A DNA stretch of 64,000 nucleotides from an archaeon (GTDB lineage Archaea; Nanobdellota; Nanobdellia; SCGC-AAA011-G17; GW2011-AR17): the NCBI GenBank assembly GCA_043814545.1, contig JBDRJY010000018.1, positions 18,046-82,045 of the forward strand, given 5' to 3'. Below the pieces are notes generated by a model. That model was not told the origin of the DNA, searched no databases, and saw only the letters and a program-made list of their open reading frames with translations. Below are positions 2,792 to 64,000 of this stretch, in pieces (position 1 is the first letter of the stretch; every line of letters starts with the position of its first letter). The position numbers and the translations under genes are program-made.

Positions 2792-2844
2792 TTAGTTTTA
2801 TATATAGTTTTTAACTTTTATAAAGGTTGGTTTTTAATAGAATT

Positions 2845-3117: not shown

Positions 3118-3450
3118 TTATTTTTTTTCTTTTTGAAGTTGATCCATAACTTCTTTTTGGATAGCTTGTGCTTTATCTTTAAGTGAATCTTCCTGTTTCT
3201 TAATTGTTTTCAACCTTAAATCTAAAACATCTTTATTTTCATTAAGTTCTTTAATTAAATCATTTTTGTTAGATTCAATCATGATGCCACCAAGGATTTT
3301 ATAATTTTTACCTTTTGCATTTTCAAGTTCTTTAAGAGCATTTTTAATTTCAAGAATTTGGTTTTGAAAAGTTTGACGTTGCATCATTGAGTTTGTAAGA
3401 TTTTGTTCAATTACTTGCAACTGTGCAATTTGTTCTTCTTGGTTACTCAT
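3118..3450 (-). CDS. pfdB: Prefoldin beta subunit
   Basis: 110-aa coiled-coil protein with the central GGIMIES hairpin motif of prefoldin beta. Confidence 0.8.
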   Translation of the reverse strand: MSNQEEQIAQLQVIEQNLTNSMMQRQTFQNQILEIKNALKELENAKGKNYKILGGIMIESNKNDLIKELNENKDVLDLRLKTIKKQEDSLKDKAQAIQKEVMDQLQKEKK

Positions 3451-3584
3451 TTTGCCTCCACAACAGTTTGTACTGTTCTAGGTTTGAATATGATTTTACA
3501 ACCGCAGTACGGGCACCGAATTTTCTTTTTAACATAATCAGACTTAATTTCACGTCTACAATCGAAACATTTGTATACAGCCAT
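3447..3584 (-). CDS. rpoP: DNA-directed RNA polymerase subunit P (RpoP/Rpb12)
   Basis: Not in the ORF track. Manual translation MAVYKCFDCRREIKSDYVKKKIRCPYCGCKIIFKPRTVQTVVEAK (45 aa, CxxC...CxxC zinc ribbon). Its stop overlaps the pfdB ATG (ATGA) and its ATG overlaps the L37ae stop by 1 nt. Confidence 0.8.
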   Translation of the reverse strand: MAVYKCFDCRREIKSDYVKKKIRCPYCGCKIIFKPRTVQTVVEAK

Positions 3585-3799
3585 TATTTATCTCCTACAC
3601 GATAAGCTTTGCCAGCAAACTTAGAATCGCATTTTTTACAGTGCCAGATACCAGATGATATACGTTTGACAGTCAGTTGATTACAGTACGGACATTTCTG
3701 TTTAGAATATTGTATTTTTTCTATAGCTTGAACTTTATTACGCATTTTACGGCCATATCTTGCGCCGAACCGTCCTACAGATCCTGTTTTTTTTACCAT
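3584..3799 (-). CDS. rpl37ae: Ribosomal protein L37ae (eL43)
   Basis: MVKKTGSVGRFGARYGRKMRNKV...CPYCN...CKKCDSKFAGKAY. The ORF-track extension to 3877 runs into the tRNA-Pro gene, so the true start is the internal ATG at 3799. Confidence 0.85.
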   Translation of the reverse strand: MVKKTGSVGRFGARYGRKMRNKVQAIEKIQYSKQKCPYCNQLTVKRISSGIWHCKKCDSKFAGKAYRVGDK

Positions 3800-3818
3800 T
3801 TTATTTTCGCATATTAAA

Positions 3819-3893
3819 TGGGATCGCCCGGATTTGAACCGGGGTCGTCGGGTCCCAAACCCGAAAGGATGGACCAAGCTACCCTACGATCCC
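3819..3893 (-). tRNA. tRNA-Pro (anticodon UGG)
   Basis: Minus-strand GGGATCGTAGGGTAGCTTGGTCCATCCTTTCGGGTTTGGGACCCGACGACCCCGGTTCAAATCCGGGCGATCCCA. It has a 7-bp acceptor stem, anticodon loop TTTGGGA and T-loop GGTTCAAATCC. Confidence 0.85.
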
Positions 3894-3899
3894 ATTTGA

Positions 3900-4589
3900 T
3901 TATTTTTTCTTAGTAGCTTCAGGTTTTTTTGTTTCAGCTGCTGATGTTGCAGTAGCTTTCTCAGTTTTAGCTGCAACCTGTGCAGCTTTATCATCAGCAG
4001 CTTTTTTAGAAGCTGCGATTTGATCAAGTTCTCCTTGGAACCCTTTACGAATATTATCAAGTTGTTCTTTAAGTTTAGCACGCTTTTCATCGCTAACTTC
4101 AATTTTACCCGAATTGATAACTTTATCAAACTCGCCAGCATCAATCTTAGGATTAATCTTTAAAGCAACCAAACCTTCAACAAGGACACCCATTGCGTTA
4201 GCTGATCCAATAACAGTTTTAACTGCGCTTCGAAGGTTACGGATAAACAATGAAGTTTCCTTCATCTTAGCGATTTTGATAACATCTTCCATCGCCATGT
4301 TAGCAACTTTGTCAATATTAGGTATACCTGATCCTTTTTGCAGATTAAGTTCTTTCTTAATTAACTGCGAAACTGGTGGCGTACCAACTTCAATTTCAAA
4401 CTCTTTCGTTTCAGTATCTACAGTAACTTTGACAGGAACTTTCATTCCTTTAAATATTTCAGTTTTTTTATTGATGGCTGCAACAACTTCACTAATGTTA
4501 ACTTTTAATGGACCTAAGGCTGGTCCTAATGGTGGCGCTGCAGTTGCTTTTCCGCCTTCAACAAGAGATTCAATTTTTTCTTTAGCCAT
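3900..4589 (-). CDS. rpl11: Ribosomal protein L11 (uL11) with a roughly 65-aa Lys/Ala-rich C-terminal extension
   Basis: N-terminal PPLGPALGPLKVNISEVV L11 signature. Residues after about 165 (KEQLDNIRKGFQGELDQIAASKKAADDKAAQVAAKTEKATATSAAETKKPEATKKK) are low-complexity basic tail. Confidence 0.9.
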   Translation of the reverse strand: MAKEKIESLVEGGKATAAPPLGPALGPLKVNISEVVAAINKKTEIFKGMKVPVKVTVDTETKEFEIEVGTPPVSQLIKKELNLQKGSGIPNIDKVANMAMEDVIKIAKMKETSLFIRNLRSAVKTVIGSANAMGVLVEGLVALKINPKIDAGEFDKVINSGKIEVSDEKRAKLKEQLDNIRKGFQGELDQIAASKKAADDKAAQVAAKTEKATATSAAETKKPEATKKK

Positions 4590-4685
4590 TTTTATCTACT
4601 GAACTTATATACTCTCATTGAGAAATTTATCCCCTTTATAAGCTTTTCTGATTTAGTTTTGGCTTAGCCTTTATTATAGGAAACC

Positions 4686-13697: not shown

Positions 13698-13791
13698 AAT
13701 TTTGGCTTACGCCTTTTAGGAATGTTTAGATTATTTATTTTGATATTTTATTGTTACTGTTTAGGAAAGAGCTAAAAGAAACAACTCATAA

Positions 13792-13808
13792 AGCCGAAGG
13801 CAAAACCC
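13792..13808 (+). promoter_or_regulatory. Upstream promoter-associated motif AGCCGAAGGCAAAACCC, immediately 5' of the aIF5A BRE/TATA
   Basis: Near-identical element (reverse complement of GGTTTTTGCCTTTGGCT) found in the same position relative to TATA at 51806-51822, and at 63499-63515. Confidence 0.45.
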
Positions 13809-13814
13809 GAAACT

Positions 13815-13822
13815 TTTATAAA
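13815..13822 (+). promoter_or_regulatory. TATA box for the aIF5A-L40e unit
   Basis: gaaactTTTATAAAca, 24 nt before the ATG at 13846. Confidence 0.55.
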
Positions 13823-13845: not shown

Positions 13846-14235
13846 ATGGATATAAAACAATCACACGCAGGCGGACTTAAACCTGGAAGATATGTTGTTT
13901 TTGACGACCTAGCATGCGTTGTTAAAAGTGTACAAACATCTAGGACAGGTAAACACGGTCATGCTAAGTGTAGGATTGAAGCTGTATCTATCAAAGATGG
14001 TAGAAAAATAATTAAAATTATCCCGGCGCATGATAATGTCGACACACCTATCATTGAGAAAAAAACTGCTCAAGTTTTGTCTGTCAAAAGCAAAACTGCA
14101 AATGTTATGGATATGGAATCATTCGAAACGTTTGATGTTGTAGTTCCTCAAAATCTTGAAGATCAGGTTAAGGAAGGCAGTCAGATTGTATATTGGATTG
14201 TGCTGGGCGATAAGATTGTGCAACAGGTAAAATAA
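13846..14235 (+). CDS. eif5a: Translation initiation factor 5A (aIF-5A)
   Basis: Hypusine loop SRTGKHGHAKC; 129 aa. Confidence 0.9.
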   Translation: MDIKQSHAGGLKPGRYVVFDDLACVVKSVQTSRTGKHGHAKCRIEAVSIKDGRKIIKIIPAHDNVDTPIIEKKTAQVLSVKSKTANVMDMESFETFDVVVPQNLEDQVKEGSQIVYWIVLGDKIVQQVK

Positions 14236-14430: not shown

Positions 14431-15645
14431 GTGCTTCAGTTTATGAACTGGGATCTGATTTCAATTCTAATCTTTTATACTATTCTTCTAATTTTATATA
14501 TCGTTTTCAAGGAAAAATTCACTGTCCAGTCTAAAATATTTGTTATGTACAAAGCCAAGTGGGGCTTAAAACTGATGGACAAGTATGCTAAGTTATGGCC
14601 AAACCTTTCAAAACTGTTCGCTTTTATTGGAGTAATTGTAGGTTTTGGTGGAATGTTATTCGTGTTTTGTTTTTTGATAATTGAAACATGGAAATTTATA
14701 ATTACACCTGGCGCTGAAGCAGCTTTAAAATTAATCATACCGACGGTACAAATACCTGGTTTACCGCCCTTATCGTTTTGGCATTGGATCATATCAATCT
14801 TTTTGGTAGCAGTTGTGCACGAGTTTTCTCACGGTGTTGTTGCGAGGTTGTACAGGGTAAAAATTAGAAGTTCAGGTTTTGCTTTCTTAGGTCCGTTGCT
14901 TGCAGCGTTTGTCGAACCTGACGAGAAAGGTATACAGCAATTAAAAAAACGTAAACAGTTAGCAATTTTTGCAGCTGGCCCGTTTTCTAATATCGTTATG
15001 GCAGGAATATTTTTGTTCCTTTTATTTTACGTTACTACGCCGTTGCAAGGTACAATGTTAGACGTGAATGGTATACAAGTTAACGAACTTATGGAAAATT
15101 ATTCTTTGATTGAGACAGGTATTGAAACTCCGTTTGTTTTATACAAAATGAACGGTTTACCTATTTATGAAGAAAACAATTTTGAAGATGTAATTTTGTT
15201 TTTGAAAGACGGTGATGTTATAACTTTAGGCACTGATAAAGGTGAGTATGAAGTTACTGCTATACAAAGTCCTGATGATCCTAACCGTGCGTTAGTAGGT
15301 ATGAAAGATTTCAGGTTATCTTACGCAGTTAAAGATGATGTAAGTTACCTTGGATCTTTGCCGTTGGCTTGGCCTTGGATAAACCTTTTGATACTTTGGA
15401 TTTTTCTTATCTCTCTTGGTGTAGGTTTGTTTAACTTATTGCCTTTAGGTCCGATTGATGGTGGTAGAATGTTTTACACTCTTTTGTTAGGTATAACACA
15501 TAATGAGTTACATACACGTAGAATTTGGACAATGGTATCTTGGTTTTGTTTGTTACTAATTGTTATTAACTTATTACCTTTACTGAATAAACTTTTAATT
15601 TTCCTTTTACAGGCAGTTACAATACTTATTTCTCTAACACTATAA
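14431..15645 (+). CDS. Site-2 protease (M50 family intramembrane Zn-metalloprotease) with PDZ domain
   Basis: HEFSHG HExxH in a TM helix, multiple TM segments, central PDZ-like region, and an LPLGPIDGG C-terminal motif (LDG of S2P). Confidence 0.8.
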   Translation: MLQFMNWDLISILIFYTILLILYIVFKEKFTVQSKIFVMYKAKWGLKLMDKYAKLWPNLSKLFAFIGVIVGFGGMLFVFCFLIIETWKFIITPGAEAALKLIIPTVQIPGLPPLSFWHWIISIFLVAVVHEFSHGVVARLYRVKIRSSGFAFLGPLLAAFVEPDEKGIQQLKKRKQLAIFAAGPFSNIVMAGIFLFLLFYVTTPLQGTMLDVNGIQVNELMENYSLIETGIETPFVLYKMNGLPIYEENNFEDVILFLKDGDVITLGTDKGEYEVTAIQSPDDPNRALVGMKDFRLSYAVKDDVSYLGSLPLAWPWINLLILWIFLISLGVGLFNLLPLGPIDGGRMFYTLLLGITHNELHTRRIWTMVSWFCLLLIVINLLPLLNKLLIFLLQAVTILISLTL

Positions 15646-18459: not shown

Positions 18460-19056
18460 TTAAATATCAAATTTCATTCCAGTTGGTCCAGGATTAACAA
18501 CTAAAGTTTTACCAAGAACTTCTTTTTCACCAAAAGTTTCATGTATATGGCCACAAAGGTGTAAGATTGGTTTTACTTCTAGAATTAATTTTCTAATTGA
18601 TTTACAGCCAACATGTCCGAACCCAGGTATTAAATCTAACTTTGTGTCTATTGGCGGACCATGTGTGAAGGTAATAACAACATTATCTTTTTTAATCGTT
18701 TTTGCAAATTTATTTACAACTTTTTCAAATTCTGTGTTCTCTTTTGAAAAACCACCGCCTCCATAACCAAAAAATAAATAATTATTAATTTCATAACATC
18801 CTTTATGGAGGTAAGCAACAAAATCAAACTTTTCTGCGATTTGTGATAAACCCGATTCATGTTCATGATTTCCTGGTATTAGAAGGAAAGGTTTTCCGAA
18901 TCTTTTGAACTGAGAAATAATTTTTTCATCATGTTCTCCCCAATCTCCAACATCTCCTAAACAAATTATTATATCTACATCCTCTGTAACTTTTTTTAAC
19001 AATTTACTTAATGCTTTTCTATCTCCGTGTAGATCTCCAAATGCTAAAATTCTCAT
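18460..19056 (-). CDS. Calcineurin-like metallophosphoesterase (YfcE/MJ0936 family)
   Basis: FGDLHGD, GDVGD, GNHE, GHIHE motifs. Confidence 0.75.
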   Translation of the reverse strand: MRILAFGDLHGDRKALSKLLKKVTEDVDIIICLGDVGDWGEHDEKIISQFKRFGKPFLLIPGNHEHESGLSQIAEKFDFVAYLHKGCYEINNYLFFGYGGGGFSKENTEFEKVVNKFAKTIKKDNVVITFTHGPPIDTKLDLIPGFGHVGCKSIRKLILEVKPILHLCGHIHETFGEKEVLGKTLVVNPGPTGMKFDI

Positions 19057-21792: not shown

Positions 21793-21865
21793 AGTTTTAA
21801 AGAGATAATAGATATTATATAAAATTAACCCACGGGGAAAAACCTTAAATATTTCTTTCTTCAAT

Positions 21866-24234: not shown

Positions 24235-24840
24235 TTATTTAGACCTGCTTTTATTAGCACGTCTGCTCGGTCTTAACTTCTCCGCGCCTTTACCTTTATT
24301 TCTTAAGCCACGACTTTTACGTGCGAAAGAAGTTTTACCACGGAAAACTCTGTTAGTTTGGCTTCGTGCACAGATCCATTCCATTTTAGGGTCTTTCTTA
24401 ATTTCGGGCCTGTAAGGGTCTACTAAAATTACTTCATAAAAGTAATGTATACCATCTTTGCCAACAAAATAAGAGTTTAATACTTCTAAGTTTTCAAATT
24501 TTCTTTGAACACGTTCTTCAGCAATCCATTGATAGCTTTTACCAACAATTTTTTGCCTTCTAGAAGTCTTAGATCTACGACCTTTCTTGATTTGTTCACG
24601 TTTACGTCCGCCTCTGTTTACTCGAACTCGGGCAAGAACGTAACCTTTTTTAGCTTTGTAGCCAACGCTACGTGCTCTGTCTAACCTGGTTGGTCGGTCA
24701 ATTTTTACAATGGCATTTTCTTTTCGCCATGCAACCATTCGAAGCCTGTGCATTTCCTTATGCTCACCGGTCAGCTTTTTCCATAAGTTTCTTATGTGTT
24801 TGTACATTTTTTGTTCCAATTTGAGGTTCAGGTAGCCCAA
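24235..24840 (-). CDS. rpl15e: Ribosomal protein L15e (eL15)
   Basis: MGYLN..IRNLWKK...RPTRLDRARSVGYKAKKGYVLARVRVNRGGRKR. Confidence 0.9.
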   Translation of the reverse strand: MGYLNLKLEQKMYKHIRNLWKKLTGEHKEMHRLRMVAWRKENAIVKIDRPTRLDRARSVGYKAKKGYVLARVRVNRGGRKREQIKKGRRSKTSRRQKIVGKSYQWIAEERVQRKFENLEVLNSYFVGKDGIHYFYEVILVDPYRPEIKKDPKMEWICARSQTNRVFRGKTSFARKSRGLRNKGKGAEKLRPSRRANKSRSK

Positions 24841-24952
24841 CCATTGTGACTAGTCCCACATTCCTCTAAATCTAGGGTATTTGAAGAAATAATTTCTTTT
24901 TAAATGTTTGGTTTTTCGCTTTGCATGTTTATCCGATTTAGCTGTTAAGTAA

Positions 24953-36340: not shown

Positions 36341-36687
36341 TGTCAATTTTGCTTTATAAATTTTATGTACAACAATCCTAAATTTAGTTTACATATCCCT
36401 TAATAAACAAAAAATTAGAGTTATATTTAGGTGATAAACAATATGTGAACAATGTGGTGGCCGTTACGATCACGAGAAGGCCCGTATGCTATGCCAACAG
36501 CTCCAGGATAAGGCTGGTACTGTTGATAGGTTAACAGTTATTTCTATGCTACAAAGCGTTTACAATCACGAAGAGTTAGCACGTTGGGTTTCAACCAAGA
36601 TAAACGATTACGAATCTTTACAAAGAAAATTGAAAGATTTGAGTTAAATCTTAGATTATGTTTTAATTATCTGGTTAATGGACAAAA

Positions 36688-37158
36688 TTATTTAGAATAA
36701 ATAACAGAATGTTTATGATTACTTTTATCACTCATAGGTATACCTGCAAGTTCACCTAATTTTTGAATTTTATGATTAGTCATATTAGATTTTCTAATAA
36801 AAAATACTTCGACATCATATGTATCTTGAATAAATTTTTCGTTTCTATATGCAAGATTAAGTTCGTCTTTAGAAAATGGTTTTCCGTCTGGTTCTCTATC
36901 AAGCCATTTTGGAATTGGATAATTATCTTCGACAAAAACAATAAAATCAAAATCTGAATATAAACTTCCTCGAAATCCTGGTGGTTCATATTTTCCAAAA
37001 GTTCCTTTAACAGATGAACCCATAAGAATAATTTTTAGAATTTGATTATTTGGTAATAACTTCTTTTTAATTTTTTCAATAGCCTGTTTTCTTCATAAAT
37101 CTTGTTTTTCTTTAGGAAAAATTGTTTTTAGTGGTCTGGATTTTAAATGTTCTTCCAT
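36688..37158 (-). pseudogene. Minimal nucleotidyltransferase (MNT, Pol-beta superfamily) interrupted by an in-frame TGA
   Basis: Minus-strand frame reads MEEHLKSRPLKTIFPKEKQDL-TGA(37093-37095)-RKQAIEKIKKKLLPNNQILKIILMGSSVKGTFGKYEPPGFRGSLYSDFDFIVFV...; a GSx5-10SDxD NTase motif. The N-terminal helix needed for the fold lies upstream of the listed ATG (37023) and is cut by the stop. Confidence 0.5.
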
Positions 37159-37305
37159 AATATTTTAAATTATTTATGTTGTATATAAATATAACGAATC
37201 ACGATCCCAAATTCAAATAATTCATTGACAATGTTTTAGCTTTATTCACCCGCAGGGAAAACCCAAACAGATAATCTTATAAGACTTCTTAATATTCTAT
37301 ACAAT

Positions 37306-41044: not shown

Positions 41045-41094
41045 AGAATATTAAATGAAATTTTATTGTTTTTAAGTTTAATGGATTTTTCCCT

Positions 41095-41382
41095 TTGGGT
41101 GAATATAGTTTTAATGAATCATTGACTATGGTAACAGAAAAATCTATATACCTTATTAAATATTATTATAATATGAAAAATTTACTTTTATTAAGCTGGA
41201 GAAAAGCATGGATAATTATTGTTTCTGGATTTATCTTTGTACTCTTACATAACCTAATCAGTGGATTATTTGGAATTGAAGAGCCGTTTTTTTTCATTCT
41301 AGTTGTGTTTGTTCTTCCGATTTATGTAATCCTTGCAGTTATTTACAGTTTGATTTACTTAATTAAAAAAAAAAGAAAATAG
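41095..41382 (+). CDS. small membrane protein
   Basis: Two TM helices; 95 aa. Confidence 0.35.
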   Translation: MGEYSFNESLTMVTEKSIYLIKYYYNMKNLLLLSWRKAWIIIVSGFIFVLLHNLISGLFGIEEPFFFILVVFVLPIYVILAVIYSLIYLIKKKRK

Positions 41383-51729: not shown

Positions 51730-51791
51730 GATATTTCCCTCCTACAAATGCTGTAGTACAGCGGGTTTAGAGTATGTTTAATTTTAGATTA

Positions 51792-51805: not shown

Positions 51806-51822
51806 GGTTTTTGCCTTTGGCT
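51806..51822 (-). promoter_or_regulatory. Upstream promoter-associated motif GGTTTTTGCCTTTGGCT (minus-strand sense AGCCAAAGGCAAAAACC)
   Basis: Identical 17-mer at 63499-63515 and a near-identical one at 13792-13808, each 5' of a promoter. Confidence 0.45.
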
Positions 51823-52247
51823 TAGTAAGGTTGATAAACGTCTCCCATTATTCTAAAAGTTTTATGCGCATCAAAACAGAAATTCATTAGATCTGTTAAA
51901 TTATCTTTTGAAAGATTTTCTGCATCTCTAAGTTTTATACTAAAATTCCTCATTTTATAGCCAAGATTTCCGATAGCTGTAACAGGATTATCTTTTTGGC
52001 CAAACAGGTAAGATAAGGTGTTTATAACGATTTCATCATAAGATTGTAATTGTTCTAGACTACCCAGATCATTCCTGTCAACCCATTCTTTTAATTGTTT
52101 AACATTTCCCCAATTGACTTCAGTTTCGCTTATACGATAATAATCCATAGTTATGGACGCTCTTAAGAACATGTCAGCAATAAAATGATAATTATTGTCA
52201 AATATGCCTGGTTTAACTTTTCTGAAATCAATATAGTTAGGGTTCAT
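51822..52247 (-). CDS. hypothetical protein
   Basis: 141-aa ORF. Confidence 0.45.
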   Translation of the reverse strand: MNPNYIDFRKVKPGIFDNNYHFIADMFLRASITMDYYRISETEVNWGNVKQLKEWVDRNDLGSLEQLQSYDEIVINTLSYLFGQKDNPVTAIGNLGYKMRNFSIKLRDAENLSKDNLTDLMNFCFDAHKTFRIMGDVYQPY

Positions 52248-52353
52248 TGTAAGTTTTTGGAGATATTTAATCTTTAAATTTGTTTTGTTTATTAATAGGA
52301 AGGTTTAAATATAGGTTGTTTACTACCTCTTAGAAAATAATTAAAGGAATAAA

Positions 52354-53067
52354 ATGACAATAAAAACATGTTTATATGGATTGGCAGCTGCTGGCGCTTT
52401 AATGTTAGCTAAGCCTGCTTTTGCAGATGAAGATTCAGTTGAAGAAAGAAAGTTTGACGGTTCAGCACATTTAGGTTCAACTGTTAAATCAAGAAAAAAC
52501 GCTTTTGGTTTAGTTCTTTCAGAAGGTGTTATTATTGAAAGTGATGCATCAGTTGGTTACGGTCCTTTTCATTTAGGAACAGACGTTGTTTACGATGTAC
52601 TTGCTACTAAAGTCACAGAAATTGATACTGTTGGCGGTGTTGGCGGTTCAGTTGATAAAGTAAATATGGATTTAAGTATGATTTATGTTGCTTTACCTGA
52701 AAGTAACGGACTTGCTGGAATTCCTGCATTAATGGGTAAAGTTGGTTTTGACGTTCCTTTTAACCCAACTATCTTTACTTGTTGGGATTTTAAGAAAGGA
52801 ATTTATACTGACTTAACAGTTGGTACTGCAAATGTCCCAATAGGAGAAATTTATTATAATTTAAGCATGACTGGTGGTGTGAATTACAGTAACTTTATCC
52901 CTGAAGGAACTTGGAATTTCCATTTACAACAACGTCATAAATTAATATTTCCAATCTCTGATCATTTTTCAGCAGGTTTGGAAGGTGGCGTAATTGTTGG
53001 TCAAGCTTCAAGTGAAGAGCAATACCACGAATACTACGCAAACTTAGGTTTCAGTTTAGACCTATAA
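52354..53067 (+). CDS. Secreted hypothetical protein
   Basis: Signal peptide MTIKTCLYGLAAAGALMLAKPAFA; beta-rich, Gly-rich; local GC somewhat above flanks. Confidence 0.45.
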   Translation: MTIKTCLYGLAAAGALMLAKPAFADEDSVEERKFDGSAHLGSTVKSRKNAFGLVLSEGVIIESDASVGYGPFHLGTDVVYDVLATKVTEIDTVGGVGGSVDKVNMDLSMIYVALPESNGLAGIPALMGKVGFDVPFNPTIFTCWDFKKGIYTDLTVGTANVPIGEIYYNLSMTGGVNYSNFIPEGTWNFHLQQRHKLIFPISDHFSAGLEGGVIVGQASSEEQYHEYYANLGFSLDL

Positions 53068-54622: not shown

Positions 54623-57491
54623 GAATAGCTGGTTTTGAAGGTGAAGCTGTTTTAGCTTTTTGTTCTTGAGAATCTTCTGATAATATAATTACAATTTCTG
54701 AATTAAAATATTTTTTTAGATCTTTGCTTAGCTTAGTTATAGAATCCAGTTCAGTTTTCTGGTCTAAGACTGTTTCAGGAATTTTTGTAGGATCTTTTAC
54801 TAAAACAGGTATAAGTTTAGTAATATCTTTACCATATTTTTTCATATCCGTTTTCATTATAGATTGCGTAAGAATTTTAACATCTCTTGTTTCTTCCAAC
54901 ATTTCCTTGAACATTGTAAAAAACTCGTATTTCCATTTTGGACTAATTATGTAAGTTATCTTTTTGGGTTTATCTACCTTGATTAATTTTAAGACGGTAC
55001 GAGTATCGGCTTTTAAGTTATCAACCATATCATCAATGTATTCTAAGGTTAAGTTAACTTTAGTAGAATCTGACTTTGGCCAGTCCGATATGGAAACATA
55101 ATCTTTAAACCCATGTTTTTCAAAAAGTTCTTCGGCATAATGCGGTATTAAAGGTGTTAACAACTTAATCCATTTTAAGCTAATATAATTGTTAAAGATA
55201 AAAATATCTTCTTCACTTCCCTTAGTTAAAGCTTTGTTATATATTGACGGTATTTCATGTAACACAACGTTTGAATAAGTTCTAAGATCCATTTGTGTTA
55301 AGGCTTTAGTAGCTTTTTCAATTTGCTTTTCAAACCTGGAACATAAAGAAAGTAAAAGGTCAGGCATTTTGCCTTTGGCTTTAGACTTTGCACAGTTTTC
55401 TAAAATGGTATAAACATTTTCAACATGTTTTTTCGCTTTTTCAACTTCGCTTGATTCCCAGTTTAAAGTACTTTCAACAGATGTAGAGTTGCAAAGGTAA
55501 GACCTGAACGCGTCAGCGCCGTATTTTTTGTTTAGATCAAATAAAGTTACAACGTTTCCTTTAGACTTAGACATTTTATGACCTTCGCTTAAAATCATTC
55601 CGTGGAAAGTTATTTTCTTTGGCCATGTTTTCTTTGGGAAAATTGCAGTATGTGCAAAAATCATGAACGATAAATGGTTAGATAAATGTGCTTGGAAAGT
55701 GTGCCTATGGTCAACAGGATACCAGTAATCAAAATTCTTTTTTAATTCTTTCAACTCTTTTTCTTCAATCTTGGTTTTCTTTGCAACATCTTTTATGTTA
55801 CCTTCACCTAAATACACATAATCGAAAAATTCTAAAGGTAAATTGTTAGGTTTAAGTTTATATTCTTGTACAAGATTTTGGATAGTGTACAACGACATGT
55901 AAATAGTTGAATCTGATAAAGATTCTATGACCCATTCTTTGTTAAACGGTAGTTTTGTACCTAAACCTCTTCTTCTTGCGCAAGGTCTTTTATCTAGCCA
56001 AGCAAAAACATCTTCAAACTGTTTCCTATATTTATCAGGAACAATTTCCATCTGTTTCAAACATTTGTTAGCTTCGATTTTCCAACCTTTAGCATTAAAA
56101 TCTAAGAACCATTGATCATCTAACACTGCAACAATAATATCTCCGCCGTCACGCGACTGTGCGTGCCTAGAAGTTTCATAAAAAATGTCAGCTTCACCTT
56201 TCTTAATCAAATCATTTTTAATTTCATCTTTAGCTTTTGTTACAGGCATACCTGTGTACTTACCGCAAGTGTCCATCATAACTCCAGTGTGAAAACCAAC
56301 CTTGTAAATTTCTTGAGTTGCTTTGGTTAACAAATCGTGCTGGTCAACAGATTTGATTTTAAGTTTTTTACAAATTTCTACTGCTGGAAAATCTCCGTAA
56401 CCTTTTGATTTTATTATTGGCAGAAGTTTTATTTTTTTGATCTCTTCATAATTAAATTTATATTTTTTTGCAAGTTGATCATTATCTTGTAACTCTTTCA
56501 ACGAGATCCAGTCGAAAGGCGCATCGCTTGGCACAGATGTTACTAAACCTGTTCCAATCTTAGCATCACAATGTAGTGAAGGTAAAATTATAATCTTACG
56601 ATTGATTACAGGAGCAGTACAAGTTTTACCGATAAGATCTTTACCTTTAATGTTTTCTAAAATCTTAACTTTCTTATCTTGATACTTTAACTTTTTAACA
56701 CATTCTTTGCTAACAATCCATCTCTCATCGCCAACTTGCGCTTTAACATATTCAATGTCAGGATGAACCCACATATTAGTTTGCCCATACATTGTTTCAG
56801 GTCTTAATGTGGCAGCAACAATGTAAGAATCTTCAAATTTAAATTTTAACAAAGTAAATTCTTGTTTGTCAACAGGGTTAGTATCGCCATCAGCAATATC
56901 ATCTTCGCCAACTGCAGAGTTTAATGATAAGCTGTATAGGACAGGATACTTGCCTTGAACAAGATAACCTTTTTCTTTGTACTTATGGAACTGCCATTCA
57001 ACCAGTTTTTGGTGAATGGAATCATTAGAAGTAAAAACTCGTGTCCAATCAACGCCTAAACCTAAGGTAGAAAACTCTGAAATCATTTTAGGCGCAAAAA
57101 AATCTACAATCTTTTGCGGTTCTTCGAACGATTTAATAATTTTATTAATTTCTTTAGAATCTTTCACATAAGCTTTAACATAACTTTTGTACAACTCAAT
57201 TTTCTTTTTATCTTTATTTTTTATAGCTAGACTAATACCTAAGACTGGTGTACCGGAAACGTGGAAAGCTAATGGAAACAAAACATTTTTGCCAGTCATC
57301 CTTAAGAAACGAGAATAAACATCAGCTTCAGTAACAACACGCGCATGCCCAATATGTAAACTGCCAGAAATGTACGGGTAAGGCACTGTCATGAAAAACT
57401 TTTCTTTAGATTTGTCAATCTCAGGTTCAAAAATCTTATCAGATGCCCACTTCTTTTGCCATTTATCTTGGACTTTCTTAAAGCTAACCAT
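54612..57491 (-). CDS. leuS: Leucyl-tRNA synthetase, archaeal type
   Basis: HIGH motif (PYPYISGSLHIGHARV), KMSKS, CP1 editing domain; 959 aa. Confidence 0.95.
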   Translation of the reverse strand: MVSFKKVQDKWQKKWASDKIFEPEIDKSKEKFFMTVPYPYISGSLHIGHARVVTEADVYSRFLRMTGKNVLFPLAFHVSGTPVLGISLAIKNKDKKKIELYKSYVKAYVKDSKEINKIIKSFEEPQKIVDFFAPKMISEFSTLGLGVDWTRVFTSNDSIHQKLVEWQFHKYKEKGYLVQGKYPVLYSLSLNSAVGEDDIADGDTNPVDKQEFTLLKFKFEDSYIVAATLRPETMYGQTNMWVHPDIEYVKAQVGDERWIVSKECVKKLKYQDKKVKILENIKGKDLIGKTCTAPVINRKIIILPSLHCDAKIGTGLVTSVPSDAPFDWISLKELQDNDQLAKKYKFNYEEIKKIKLLPIIKSKGYGDFPAVEICKKLKIKSVDQHDLLTKATQEIYKVGFHTGVMMDTCGKYTGMPVTKAKDEIKNDLIKKGEADIFYETSRHAQSRDGGDIIVAVLDDQWFLDFNAKGWKIEANKCLKQMEIVPDKYRKQFEDVFAWLDKRPCARRRGLGTKLPFNKEWVIESLSDSTIYMSLYTIQNLVQEYKLKPNNLPLEFFDYVYLGEGNIKDVAKKTKIEEKELKELKKNFDYWYPVDHRHTFQAHLSNHLSFMIFAHTAIFPKKTWPKKITFHGMILSEGHKMSKSKGNVVTLFDLNKKYGADAFRSYLCNSTSVESTLNWESSEVEKAKKHVENVYTILENCAKSKAKGKMPDLLLSLCSRFEKQIEKATKALTQMDLRTYSNVVLHEIPSIYNKALTKGSEEDIFIFNNYISLKWIKLLTPLIPHYAEELFEKHGFKDYVSISDWPKSDSTKVNLTLEYIDDMVDNLKADTRTVLKLIKVDKPKKITYIISPKWKYEFFTMFKEMLEETRDVKILTQSIMKTDMKKYGKDITKLIPVLVKDPTKIPETVLDQKTELDSITKLSKDLKKYFNSEIVIILSEDSQEQKAKTASPSKPAILIE

Positions 57492-59318: not shown

Positions 59319-59486
59319 ATTATTAACCTCCTTTTTGTTAAAATAAATTTTAGGATTAAAGTTTAAAACTGATTCTGAGAAAAAACATGTAATCTTAGAT
59401 CTAATACCGTGAATATTAGTTGTTTTACCATAAACCTGCAAAATAGTAAATTATAAAAACCCCACGAAACTTAAAAAATCCATATA

Positions 59487-59564: not shown

Positions 59565-59637
59565 GCTGGCGTGCCCAAGCGGTTAAGGGGATCGGCTGCA
59601 ACCCGGTTATTCCCAGGTTCGAGTCCTGGCGCCAGCT
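59565..59637 (+). tRNA. tRNA-Cys (anticodon GCA)
   Basis: GCTGGCG acceptor pairs with CGCCAGC plus U73 discriminator; anticodon loop CTGCAAC; T-loop GGTTCGAGTCC. Confidence 0.85.
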
Positions 59638-59640
59638 TTT
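59627..59640 (+). repeat. attL-like 14-nt direct repeat TGGCGCCAGCTTTT (3' end of tRNA-Cys)
   Basis: Exact copy at 60778-60791. Confidence 0.55.
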
Positions 59641-60777: not shown

Positions 60778-60791
60778 TGGCGCCAGCTTTT
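60778..60791 (+). repeat. attR-like 14-nt direct repeat TGGCGCCAGCTTTT
   Basis: Exact copy of 59627-59640. Confidence 0.55.
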
Positions 60792-60835
60792 AAAACCAAG
60801 AAGATTTATATATCTCTTTAATATTAACATAATTT

Positions 60836-63364: not shown

Positions 63365-63498
63365 TTTTTGGTATACCCCCTAATTATTACTAATTAGTTG
63401 GACTTTGAGATAAAGTGATTATATATAAACGTTACTGTTATATCCTCTATTTTAGAGTCTATTATGGGGTTTTAGAGCTTAACTATTAAGAATTCTGG

Positions 63499-63515
63499 GG
63501 TTTTTGCCTTTGGCT
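63499..63515 (-). promoter_or_regulatory. Third copy of GGTTTTTGCCTTTGGCT, upstream of the surface-protein gene
   Basis: Identical 17-mer to 51806-51822; about 135 nt 5' of the ATG at 63364 on the minus strand. Confidence 0.4.
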
Positions 63516-63519
63516 GGGG

Positions 63520-64000
63520 CTATATCTTCAAACTTAGAACTTTAGACTGGCCTTCAACCATTGAAACGCCGTAAATTGTGTGCGCTTCAGAAATAATAGC
63601 ATCATTGTGAGAGATTACTATATATTGCGCATGATCCGAATATTTTGCTATTAGCCTTGATAGTAAGGCAGAATTTTGTTTATCCAATGCTGCATCAACT
63701 TCGTCTAATAGATAGAATGGTGCAGGTGAAAATTCTTGGACAGCGAAAATGAATGCTAAGGCAGCCATGGTTTTTTCTCCACCAGACAAACTTTTGATGT
63801 CTAAAGCTTTTGTTCCCGTAAGTTTAACCTGGATATCTACACCGCCTTGGAACGGATCCTCTTCATTTTCTAATAATAAATGTGCCTCACCTTTACTGGA
63901 TAAACTAGCAAAAATTTCTTTGAAATGTTTTGCAAGGTCTTTAAACGTTTTCATGAAAATATCTTTCTTCTTTGATTCTATCTCAAACATAAGTTCTAAA
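63520..64000 (-). CDS. SMC/Rad50-family ABC ATPase, C-terminal part (gene continues past the window end)
   Basis: ABC signature LSGGEKT, Walker B LLDEVDAALD, H-loop ISHN. Confidence 0.7.
   Translation of the reverse strand, partial: LELMFEIESKKKDIFMKTFKDLAKHFKEIFASLSSKGEAHLLLENEEDPFQGGVDIQVKLTGTKALDIKSLSGGEKTMAALAFIFAVQEFSPAPFYLLDEVDAALDKQNSALLSRLIAKYSDHAQYIVISHNDAIISEAHTIYGVSMVEGQSKVLSLKI

Follow-up and report, generated by a model that had tools for sequence, protein, structure and literature searches.

A G/C palindrome fused to an A-tract upstream of the BRE of translation and S-layer gene promoters in a Woesearchaeota-like archaeon: a candidate regulatory site

Analysis of a 64-kb stretch of DNA (the window, by which we mean the whole stretch, 64,000 nt) from an uncultured, Woesearchaeota-like DPANN archaeon reveals a short element in which a G/C inverted repeat is directly followed by an A-tract, and which recurs just upstream of the BRE and TATA box of several promoters. 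The element is real and goes beyond chance, but it is modest. We tentatively favor, at a little less than an even chance, the view that it is the operator or upstream activating site of a putative lineage-specific dimeric regulator. In kind, this would be an ordinary candidate cis-regulatory site of the upstream-of-BRE type, whose sequence, host organism and link to translation are undescribed in the literature that we searched.

The window has a GC content of ~32%, while its intergenic DNA, which makes up 10% of the total, is 28% GC. The L1 protein encoded there shares no more than 55% identity with those of the GTDB species representatives retrieved, and the representatives with L1 matches are nearly all labelled as Woesearchaeota, Nanoarchaeota or Nanobdellota MAGs. 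Pfam confirmed the identity of L1, the IF5A-like protein, L11, L15e and the C terminus of an SMC protein encoded upstream of the S-layer-like gene. Promoters in the window are of the archaeal type, with a TTTATAAA-like box preceded by RAAAC(C). Two relatives were used for comparison. The closer one, represented by short JGI contigs with 85% L1 identity and treated as an ~85-90% relative, was compared at the L1, aIF5A and DUF1385 promoters. The other (GCA_054040335.1, a 599-kb contig with an L1 identity of 71%), referred to as the ~70% relative, was sampled via three overlapping loci that amount to 53.5 kb and are syntenic with much of the window.

The initial annotation had singled out a 17-mer, GGTTTTTGCCTTTGGCT, and the two exact occurrences that it reported, at 51806-51822 and 63499-63515, are indeed present. 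When up to three mismatches are allowed, there are six matches against 0.28 expected, a number reached in none of 100 shuffles of the window. The near-identical copy described next to the aIF5A TATA is there as well, at 13792-13808; it reads GGGTTTTGCCTTCGGCT on the minus strand, with two mismatches to the 17-mer, and AGCCGAAGGCAAAACCC in the sense of aIF5A. On the sense strand, the L1, S-layer and aIF5A copies share the reading AGCC-RAA-GGC-AAAA(M)CC. The 5' part of the element is a G/C inverted repeat of 3 bp with a 3-nt spacer (SSC-NNN-GSS), and the 3' part, directly 3' of this palindrome, is AAAA(A)CC, which is similar to the local BRE. The 17-mer is therefore not a single unit: the 3' part is a core-promoter feature shared with the ~70% relative, and lineage-specific novelty is confined to the 5' palindrome.

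A generalized search for a G/C inverted repeat of 3 bp with a 3-4 nt spacer, followed by AAAA at an offset of 0-1 nt, returned 12 sites; in 100 Markov simulations the expectation was 1.7 and no run exceeded 6, so that the enrichment is approximately sevenfold. In nine of the 12, the spacer is 3 nt long and the offset zero. Symmetry goes together with the A-tract: nine of the 15 SSS-N3-SSS-AAAA sites are palindromic against a background of 20% (p=9e-4), while SSS-N3-SSS palindromes other than the nine A-tract copies are at chance level (15/109). The half-sites differ between copies (GCC, CCC, GGC) with symmetry kept, and the invariant part is the inner C...G only. A random 9-mer has a chance of ~1/512 of taking the palindromic form.

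The L1-operon copy (AGCCAAAGGCAAAAACC, an exact 17-mer on the minus strand, 51806-51822) directly adjoins the TAA stop of a 141-aa ORF (51822-52247). Its palindrome, GCC-AAA-GGC (51821-51813), is followed by AAAAACC (51812-51806), then by AAAACC (51805-51800) and the TATA box TTTATAAATA (51799-51790), which leaves a gap of 6 nt between copy and TATA. The same 17-mer, AGCCAAAGGCAAAAACC, forms the S-layer-gene copy on the minus strand (63499-63515, palindrome from 63514), 4 nt past the stop codon of the SMC gene (63520-63522). A weak TATA-like sequence, TTAATAGTT, is found 9 nt after this copy, and the conserved strong S-layer TATA, TTTATATATA, is located 69 nt downstream (63429-63420). In the aIF5A copy, on the plus strand (13792-13808), the palindrome GCC-GAA-GGC starts at 13793, and the copy is followed by GAAAC, which corresponds to the BRE, by the TATA box TTTTATAAA (13814-13822) after a gap of 5 nt, and by the ATG at 13846. 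The claim that position relative to TATA (-40 to -55) is the same in these three cases therefore stands for L1 and aIF5A, and fails for the S-layer copy because of its 69-nt distance.

Looser variants had also been proposed upstream of L11 and L15e, and both exist. The L11 copy, GGCTAAGCCAAAAC at 4656-4669 on the minus strand, has swapped arms (GGC-TAA-GCC-AAAAC) and is found 13 nt upstream of the TATA box CTTATAAAGG (4642-4633), between the divergent promoters of the L11 gene (3900-4589, minus strand) and a DnaJ-like gene. The L15e copy, GCAAAGCGAAAAACC, is weaker, with a 2-bp stem (GC-AAA-GC-G-AAAAACC) followed by AAACA and TTTAAAAAG; it is located at 24910-24924 on the minus strand, ~20 nt away from where it had been placed.

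Three further copies are of the CCC-NNN-GGG version. Upstream of a gene for a bPH-like protein of 157 aa, CCC-ACG-GGG-AAAAACC (21829-21844, plus strand) abuts the TATA box TTAAATAT (21845-21852), with AAAAACC in the BRE position; the palindrome separates this gene's promoter from the divergent one of a histidine-phosphatase gene. The DUF1385 copy, CCC-GCA-GGG-AAAACCC (37249-37264, plus strand), lies at the right-hand end of a segment of ~620 nt (36648-37265) that is missing from both relatives and holds a 111-aa ORF on the opposite strand, to which no function was assigned. At the HD-domain gene, CCC-AAA-GGG-AAAAATCC (41083-41099, minus strand) is followed by ATTAAAC and then TTAAAAAC; the 3-mismatch match to the 17-mer at 41084 corresponds to this promoter and is a true family member. 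Two other matches are not. The one within leuS (AGCCAAAGGCAAAATGC, 55364-55380, minus strand, two mismatches) lies in coding sequence, encodes KAKGKMP and has the same sequence in the leuS of the ~70% relative (L080 8014), and is a coding coincidence. The 3-mismatch match at 15353, within an S2P protease gene, is probably due to chance. A related arrangement, T5-GGCTTACGCC-T4 (13700-13722), follows a 78-aa gene and is conserved in L083.

The copies are concentrated at promoters. Seven of the nine generalized copies are intergenic (L11, aIF5A, the L1 operon, the S-layer gene and the bPH-like, DUF1385 and HD genes) although intergenic DNA represents only 10% of the window (p=3e-6). In all seven, the A-tract side points to a near gene start and a TATA-like box is found at a distance of 0-19 nt; four of the seven sit between divergent genes. 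The gap between the palindrome and a TATA-like box is 7-19 nt at L1, aIF5A, L15e, L11, bPH, HD and DUF1385, the S-layer copy being the spacing outlier with 69 nt to its main TATA. L1, aIF5A and L15e have a layout of ~30 nt in common, that is, palindrome, AAAA(A)CC, NAAAC and TATA, with 17-18 nt from the palindrome center to TATA and a second RAAAC between AAAA(A)CC and TATA. AAAA(A)CC followed after 4-9 nt by TATA, with no palindrome, is seen at the tRNA-Arg gene at 59455 and at two further promoter-like sites, 2835 on the minus strand and 60792.

As for the genes concerned, the element extends beyond the translation and surface genes to which the initial annotation took it to be specific. Each of the window's four translation-gene promoters has it (L11, aIF5A, L1-L10-P1 and L15e, the last with its 2-bp stem), and so does the S-layer gene; Fisher's test gives p=0.007 to 0.0003 for the association with translation and S-layer genes, in a gene-class statistic that is post hoc and concerns eight sites in 64 kb. 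However, three carriers, the bPH-like, DUF1385 and HD-domain genes, have no obvious role in translation or at the surface.

In phylogenetic footprinting, which had been put forward as a check, the palindrome is kept at L1 and aIF5A in the ~85-90% relative, but not at DUF1385 (~89%) or at six promoters of the ~70% relative. In the closer relative, the L1 promoter reads TAG-GCATAGCC-AAAAACC-AAAACC-TTTATAAATA. There are four changes in 12 nt at the palindrome, yet the result is a perfect G/C palindrome that abuts the A-tract, GCCAAAGGC in the window being replaced by GGCATAGCC, with the arms swapped to GGC...GCC as in the L11 type; the next 83 nt display only three changes (flanks 96% identical). 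At aIF5A, the palindrome is kept (AGCCAAAGGCAAAACCC), and the conserved block opens exactly at AGCC, with a 38-nt indel just upstream. The DUF1385 promoter of this relative has no palindrome, and AAACAGATAATCTTATAAGAC abuts the stop of a 53-aa ORF.

The six orthologous promoters compared in the ~70% relative (L1, S-layer, aIF5A, bPH-like, L15e and HD) all lack the palindrome but keep AAAA(A)CC or an A-rich sequence, the BRE and TATA; these promoters therefore do not need the palindrome. Base-for-base alignment places GCCGAAGGCA opposite TCCTAAACAT at aIF5A and GCCAAAGGC opposite ATAAAAGAC at the S-layer gene, both counterparts being non-palindromic. The 53.5 kb sampled from this relative contains no promoter-type copy, against seven in the 64-kb window (Poisson p=0.003), and there is no enrichment in 57 L1 loci of distant Woesearchaeota and Nanoarchaeota (~800 kb; 10 observed, 9.8 expected). 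As an alternative motif we considered AATCCTA, found at the corresponding place in two promoters of the ~70% relative, and discarded it since it is common in coding sequence and unspecific. The element is not a clade-wide feature. Because it is kept in the ~85-90% relative and absent from the ~70% and distant relatives, the palindrome is a young, lineage-restricted gain on, or loss from, an older A-tract/BRE/TATA promoter, and it seems to evolve through point substitution and not through insertion of a unit.

Enrichment, symmetry, promoter location, gene set and the compensatory rebuilding at L1 together argue for the operator reading. In this model, AAAA(A)CC would be part of the local core promoter and BRE-like, acting as the BRE itself at one gene and lying elsewhere one BRE-length upstream of a second RAAAC and TATA. 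The 9-bp SSC-NNN-GSS would be the operator bound by a dimeric DNA-binding regulator, with which the dyad symmetry (nine perfect inverted repeats among 15) is compatible, and the regulator, placed immediately upstream of the BRE, would modulate, and most likely promote, the recruitment of TFB and TBP. What the sequences show is non-random occurrence, inverted-repeat symmetry, promoter location, the association with translation and S-layer genes, and the pattern of retention and absence in the two relatives; protein binding, an activating effect and membership of the carrier genes in a regulon are all three inferred. Among the proteins encoded in the window, we identified no candidate regulator, and the 141-aa, 237-aa, 147-aa, 78-aa and 111-aa ORFs, which are lineage-specific neighbors, have no match in Pfam, NCBIfam or PDB. 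Half-sites that vary while symmetry is kept would be unusual for, and count against, a single sequence-specific factor, and with spacings of 7-19 nt and 69 nt the copies would not all share one face of the helix. We also counted against the operator reading that the six orthologous promoters of the ~70% relative do without the palindrome, that the DUF1385 copy, at the edge of an inserted segment, is missing in the ~89% relative, that three carriers have no evident connection with translation, and that the sample is small and its gene-class statistics post hoc. The proposal of a transcription-factor site or UP-like element holds insofar as the element is non-random and adjoins promoters, while a fixed UP-like contact is unlikely given the variable spacing. 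The simplest account is a putative regulator-binding site that adjoins the BRE on its upstream side.

Such a site would be in familiar company. Activators of archaea are reported to bind next to the BRE on its upstream side (PMC5512572, PMC4158304, PMC6737238), and a position immediately upstream of BRE/TATA goes with activation through TFB or TBP recruitment (PMC5512572, PMC4158304, PMC6737238, PMC10665913), as for EarA (fla promoter, Methanococcus and Pyrococcus), TrmB-family activators and Tar/TK0271. TFB-RF1 (Pyrococcus) and Ptr2 (Methanocaldococcus) are placed in a similar way. Like the sites of EarA, TFB-RF1, Ptr2, TrmB and Tar, the element is short, tied to promoters, restricted to a single lineage and located upstream of the BRE. 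Unlike them, it has an unrelated motif sequence, variable spacing and a factor that is only putative, and its carriers are mainly translation and S-layer genes, whereas the known activators control a metabolic or motility regulon. The layout, a 3-N3-3 inverted repeat, is reminiscent of the SurR operator of Thermococcales, GTT-N3-AAC, which is recognized by a winged-helix dimer that activates when bound upstream of the BRE. In contrast to SurR sites, the half-sites here are G/C-only, variable (GCC, CCC, GGC) and always fused to an A-tract, and nothing in our data points to a SurR-like protein or to redox genes. As for the BRE, AAAA(A)CC fits the local RAAAC(C) of the window and of other Woesearchaeota L1 promoters, and it directly abuts TATA, as AAAAACC, only at the bPH-like gene. 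At L1, aIF5A and L15e, however, it lies one step upstream of the second RAAAC-TATA, and the palindrome is outside any known BRE footprint.

The strongest rival, although on balance an unlikely one, needs no dedicated regulator: the element would extend the core promoter or act through DNA shape, a rigid G/C clamp and an adjacent bent A-tract 5' of the BRE aiding the bending induced by TBP and TFB, or delimiting the promoter on its upstream side in very AT-rich intergenic DNA. It would account for half-sites whose sequence is free provided they are G/C-rich and symmetric, and for an A-tract-plus-CC that is kept in the ~70% relative and recurs with no palindrome (59455, 2835 on the minus strand, 60792). 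It also fits intergenic DNA of 28% GC and carriers that include genes expected to be highly expressed, whose basal strength it would raise in a UP-like manner. With the bacterial UP element it shares its richness in A-tracts and a position around -40 to -55 at translation genes with high expression. But the UP element has no G/C palindrome, and bacterial RNA polymerase contacts it through the alpha-CTD, of which the archaeal enzyme has no equivalent. Moreover, a spacing to TATA that varies (7-19 nt, 69 nt) is unfit for a fixed contact with the basal machinery, a simple GC clamp needs no strict inverted-repeat symmetry, and the orthologous promoters of the ~70% relative have no palindrome. This same absence, together with that at DUF1385 in the ~89% relative, also speaks for a neutral accident, whereby G/C palindromes would arise by drift or local mutation (indels, cassette insertions) at the variable edge of promoters and the two identical 17-mers would be a coincidence in a small family. 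While the sample is small and the L1, DUF1385, aIF5A and HD copies are found exactly where indels or inserted genes start, we regard a neutral origin as less probable still than a DNA-shape element. It sits badly with a sevenfold enrichment over simulation, with a symmetry tied to the A-tract, with seven of nine copies falling in the most AT-rich, intergenic part of the DNA, with the low frequency (~1/512) of the form among random 9-mers, and with an L1 palindrome rebuilt with swapped arms in the ~85% relative between flanks that are 96% identical.

A terminator or insulator that protects strong promoters from read-through from the upstream gene, or from divergent antisense transcripts, was suggested by the L1 and S-layer copies, 0 and 4 nt past the stops of co-directional upstream genes, by the T4-T5 tract on the opposite strand, since archaeal termination uses oligo-T, and by the related T5-GGCTTACGCC-T4 sequence conserved in L083. 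We consider it very unlikely and rejected a terminator identity, because the sense strand has an A-tract and not a T-tract after the hairpin, the terminator scan is at shuffle level and the predicted fold is weak. On the antisense strand, the T-tract precedes the hairpin. Among 48 strand-wise palindrome readings, the commonest next 4-mer is AAAA (nine), while TTTT is outside the 12 commonest, of which the lowest-ranked were each seen once. The hairpins are predicted at -1.2 to -2.2 kcal/mol, within or near the range of shuffles except at the DUF1385 copy; the scan called no promoter copy via the palindrome stem (five calls in total against 6.4 in shuffles), and its sole overlap, 63506-63520 at the S-layer copy, pairs a different stem. 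Clear terminators in the window consist of longer hairpins followed by T7, and four of the seven copies, being between divergent genes, have no upstream gene to terminate. Least likely of all is a site recognized by a lineage-specific DNA methyltransferase or by a restriction-modification system, or else a short site of recombination where gene cassettes insert. An interrupted, lineage-specific palindrome and the location of the L1 and DUF1385 copies at junctions with genes missing in relatives would be in keeping with it, but half-sites of GCC, CCC and GGC are unfit for one recognition sequence, and SSS-N3-SSS palindromes with no A-tract are at chance, neither avoided nor enriched. The base-for-base alignments at aIF5A and the S-layer gene suggest point substitutions and not insertion, and no terminal repeats or target duplications were seen, which is why a mobile-cassette or att site at the DUF1385 and L1 junctions is kept only as part of this minor rival.

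Other identities were set aside. The element is not expected in the transcript because it is upstream of TATA, and it does not form a stable hairpin: only the DUF1385 copy goes beyond shuffles (z=-2.0), with a favored pairing, GGG-AAAA-CCC, that is not the palindrome stem. Rfam yielded no family for the element, and only three tRNAs reach the gathering score in the window. A dispersed repeat, such as a MITE or REP-like sequence, which the initial annotation had named as the contrary outcome, is not what we found in the window, since the two exact copies share nothing beyond their 17 nt. The 13 hits of the 17-mer in viral contigs, all single-copy, were judged to be at chance level and gave no sign of a viral or mobile repeat. 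In metagenomes, the matches to AGCCAAAGGCAAAAMCC that were listed and read come from unrelated contexts only, in contigs of 32-68% GC, and look chance-like too.

A more far-reaching version of the operator reading, which we regard as doubtful, is a recently evolved growth-rate regulon, in which a single factor would act on a 9-bp G/C dyad set against a duplicated BRE. The factor would read the inner C-N3-G, leaving the outer bases free provided they are complementary, and would bring the ribosomal-protein operons, aIF5A and the S-layer gene under common control; its sites would have been born via point substitution at many promoters, in the interval that separates the ~70% from the ~90% relatives. 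We know of no transcriptional regulator of ribosomal-protein genes described in any archaeon and, to our knowledge, almost nothing is known of promoter architecture and gene regulation in DPANN. The literature searched yielded no account of the motif or of promoter elements in DPANN. If nothing binds the element, it would be only a lineage-specific quirk of promoter sequence. For practical purposes, AAAA(A)CC, RAAAC and TTTATAAA provide a promoter consensus for annotating the clade. If a factor does bind, the element would offer a concrete and testable way to learn how the translation machinery and the cell envelope are coupled to growth in an archaeon that has a reduced genome and probably depends on a host, and comparison of ~90% and ~70% relatives would show how fast such sites are gained or lost. 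A growth-rate regulon, if true, would be a rare and datable case of the birth of a regulon for the archaeal translation apparatus.

The promoter of the S-layer gene extends into a longer upstream region (window 63430-63498, - strand) with a counterpart at positions 1150-1225 of L080, a locus of the ~70% relative, where GAATTCTYAAKAGTTAAG ... GACTCTAAAATAGA ... AACAGTAACGTTTATATATAAT is kept. This conservation suggests that a distinct, older regulatory block lies upstream.

As for the leaders of ribosomal protein genes, the L1 5' UTR exhibits a CCCG-N3-4-ACUAC...GUAGGAGGG pattern (window 51730-51775, - strand), which overlaps the Shine-Dalgarno sequence and is found again 5' of L1 in most of ~50 Woesearchaeota/Nanoarchaeota loci (from the L001-L057 set of distant loci). 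In Methanococcus, an L1-binding mimic of 23S rRNA serves autoregulation. The pattern in the L1 5' UTR looks like such a mimic, but here its place is in the leader; no family in Rfam scored above threshold. The L15e gene displays a leader of ~75 nt between its TATA box and the probable ATG (window ~24806-24890, - strand), which is near-identical in the ~70% relative (TAGAGGAATGTGGGACYAGTCA..AATGGTTGGGCTRCCTGAACCTCAAA; L084 ~18730-18810). One possible reading of this conserved leader is a 5' UTR with structure and a regulatory role; alternatively, the start codon may be wrongly placed. The genes for L11, tRNA-Pro, L37Ae, RNA polymerase subunit P and prefoldin beta are tightly packed and co-directional (window 3447-4589, - strand), with the tRNA gene sitting between ribosomal protein genes and the start of subunit P overlapping the stop of L37Ae (TAATG). 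Immediately 3' of a conserved 78-aa gene, the window contains TTTT-GGC-TTAC-GCC-TTTT (13700-13722, + strand), a T-tract-flanked mini-hairpin that looks like a terminator and is retained, with longer T-runs, in the ~90% relative (L083 ~4430-4455).

A ~620-nt segment between a 53-aa small ORF and DUF1385 (window 36648-37265), which encodes a 111-aa ORF of no assigned function on the minus strand and whose right edge is a copy of the G/C palindrome, is missing from both the ~89% and ~68% relatives and looks like a cassette that was inserted recently. In the window (51822-53067) and in the ~85% relative, L1 is separated from the methyltransferase gene by two genes (141 and 237 aa); neither matched any family, and the 237-aa protein looks secreted. 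Both genes are absent from the ~70% relative (compare L080 9830-10000); in locus L082, a TnpB-like (Cas12f1-like_TNB) gene is also near. In the ~89% relative, three contigs that are independent and come from different samples (L206, L207 and L208, position 1-25) all end upstream of the CARDB-domain gene, at a distance of 15-25 nt; in the window, this break falls between the HD and CARDB genes. These breaks suggest that the sequence there is strain-variable or repeated. A 14-nt sequence, TGGCGCCAGCTTTT, is present as an exact direct repeat, with one copy across the 3' end of tRNA-Cys (window 59627-59640) and the other 1151 nt downstream (60778-60791). The copies flank two small genes encoding 97 and 224 aa, and they look like the att sites of a small element that has integrated, or of its remnant.

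AAAA(A)CC followed, after 4-9 nt, by TATA is also found at promoters without the G/C dyad, namely a site upstream of the 2456-2845 gap (window 2820-2840, - strand), tRNA-Arg (59455-59480, + strand) and a 61-aa gene (60792-60815, + strand). This arrangement looks like an extended BRE-type promoter architecture of the clade.
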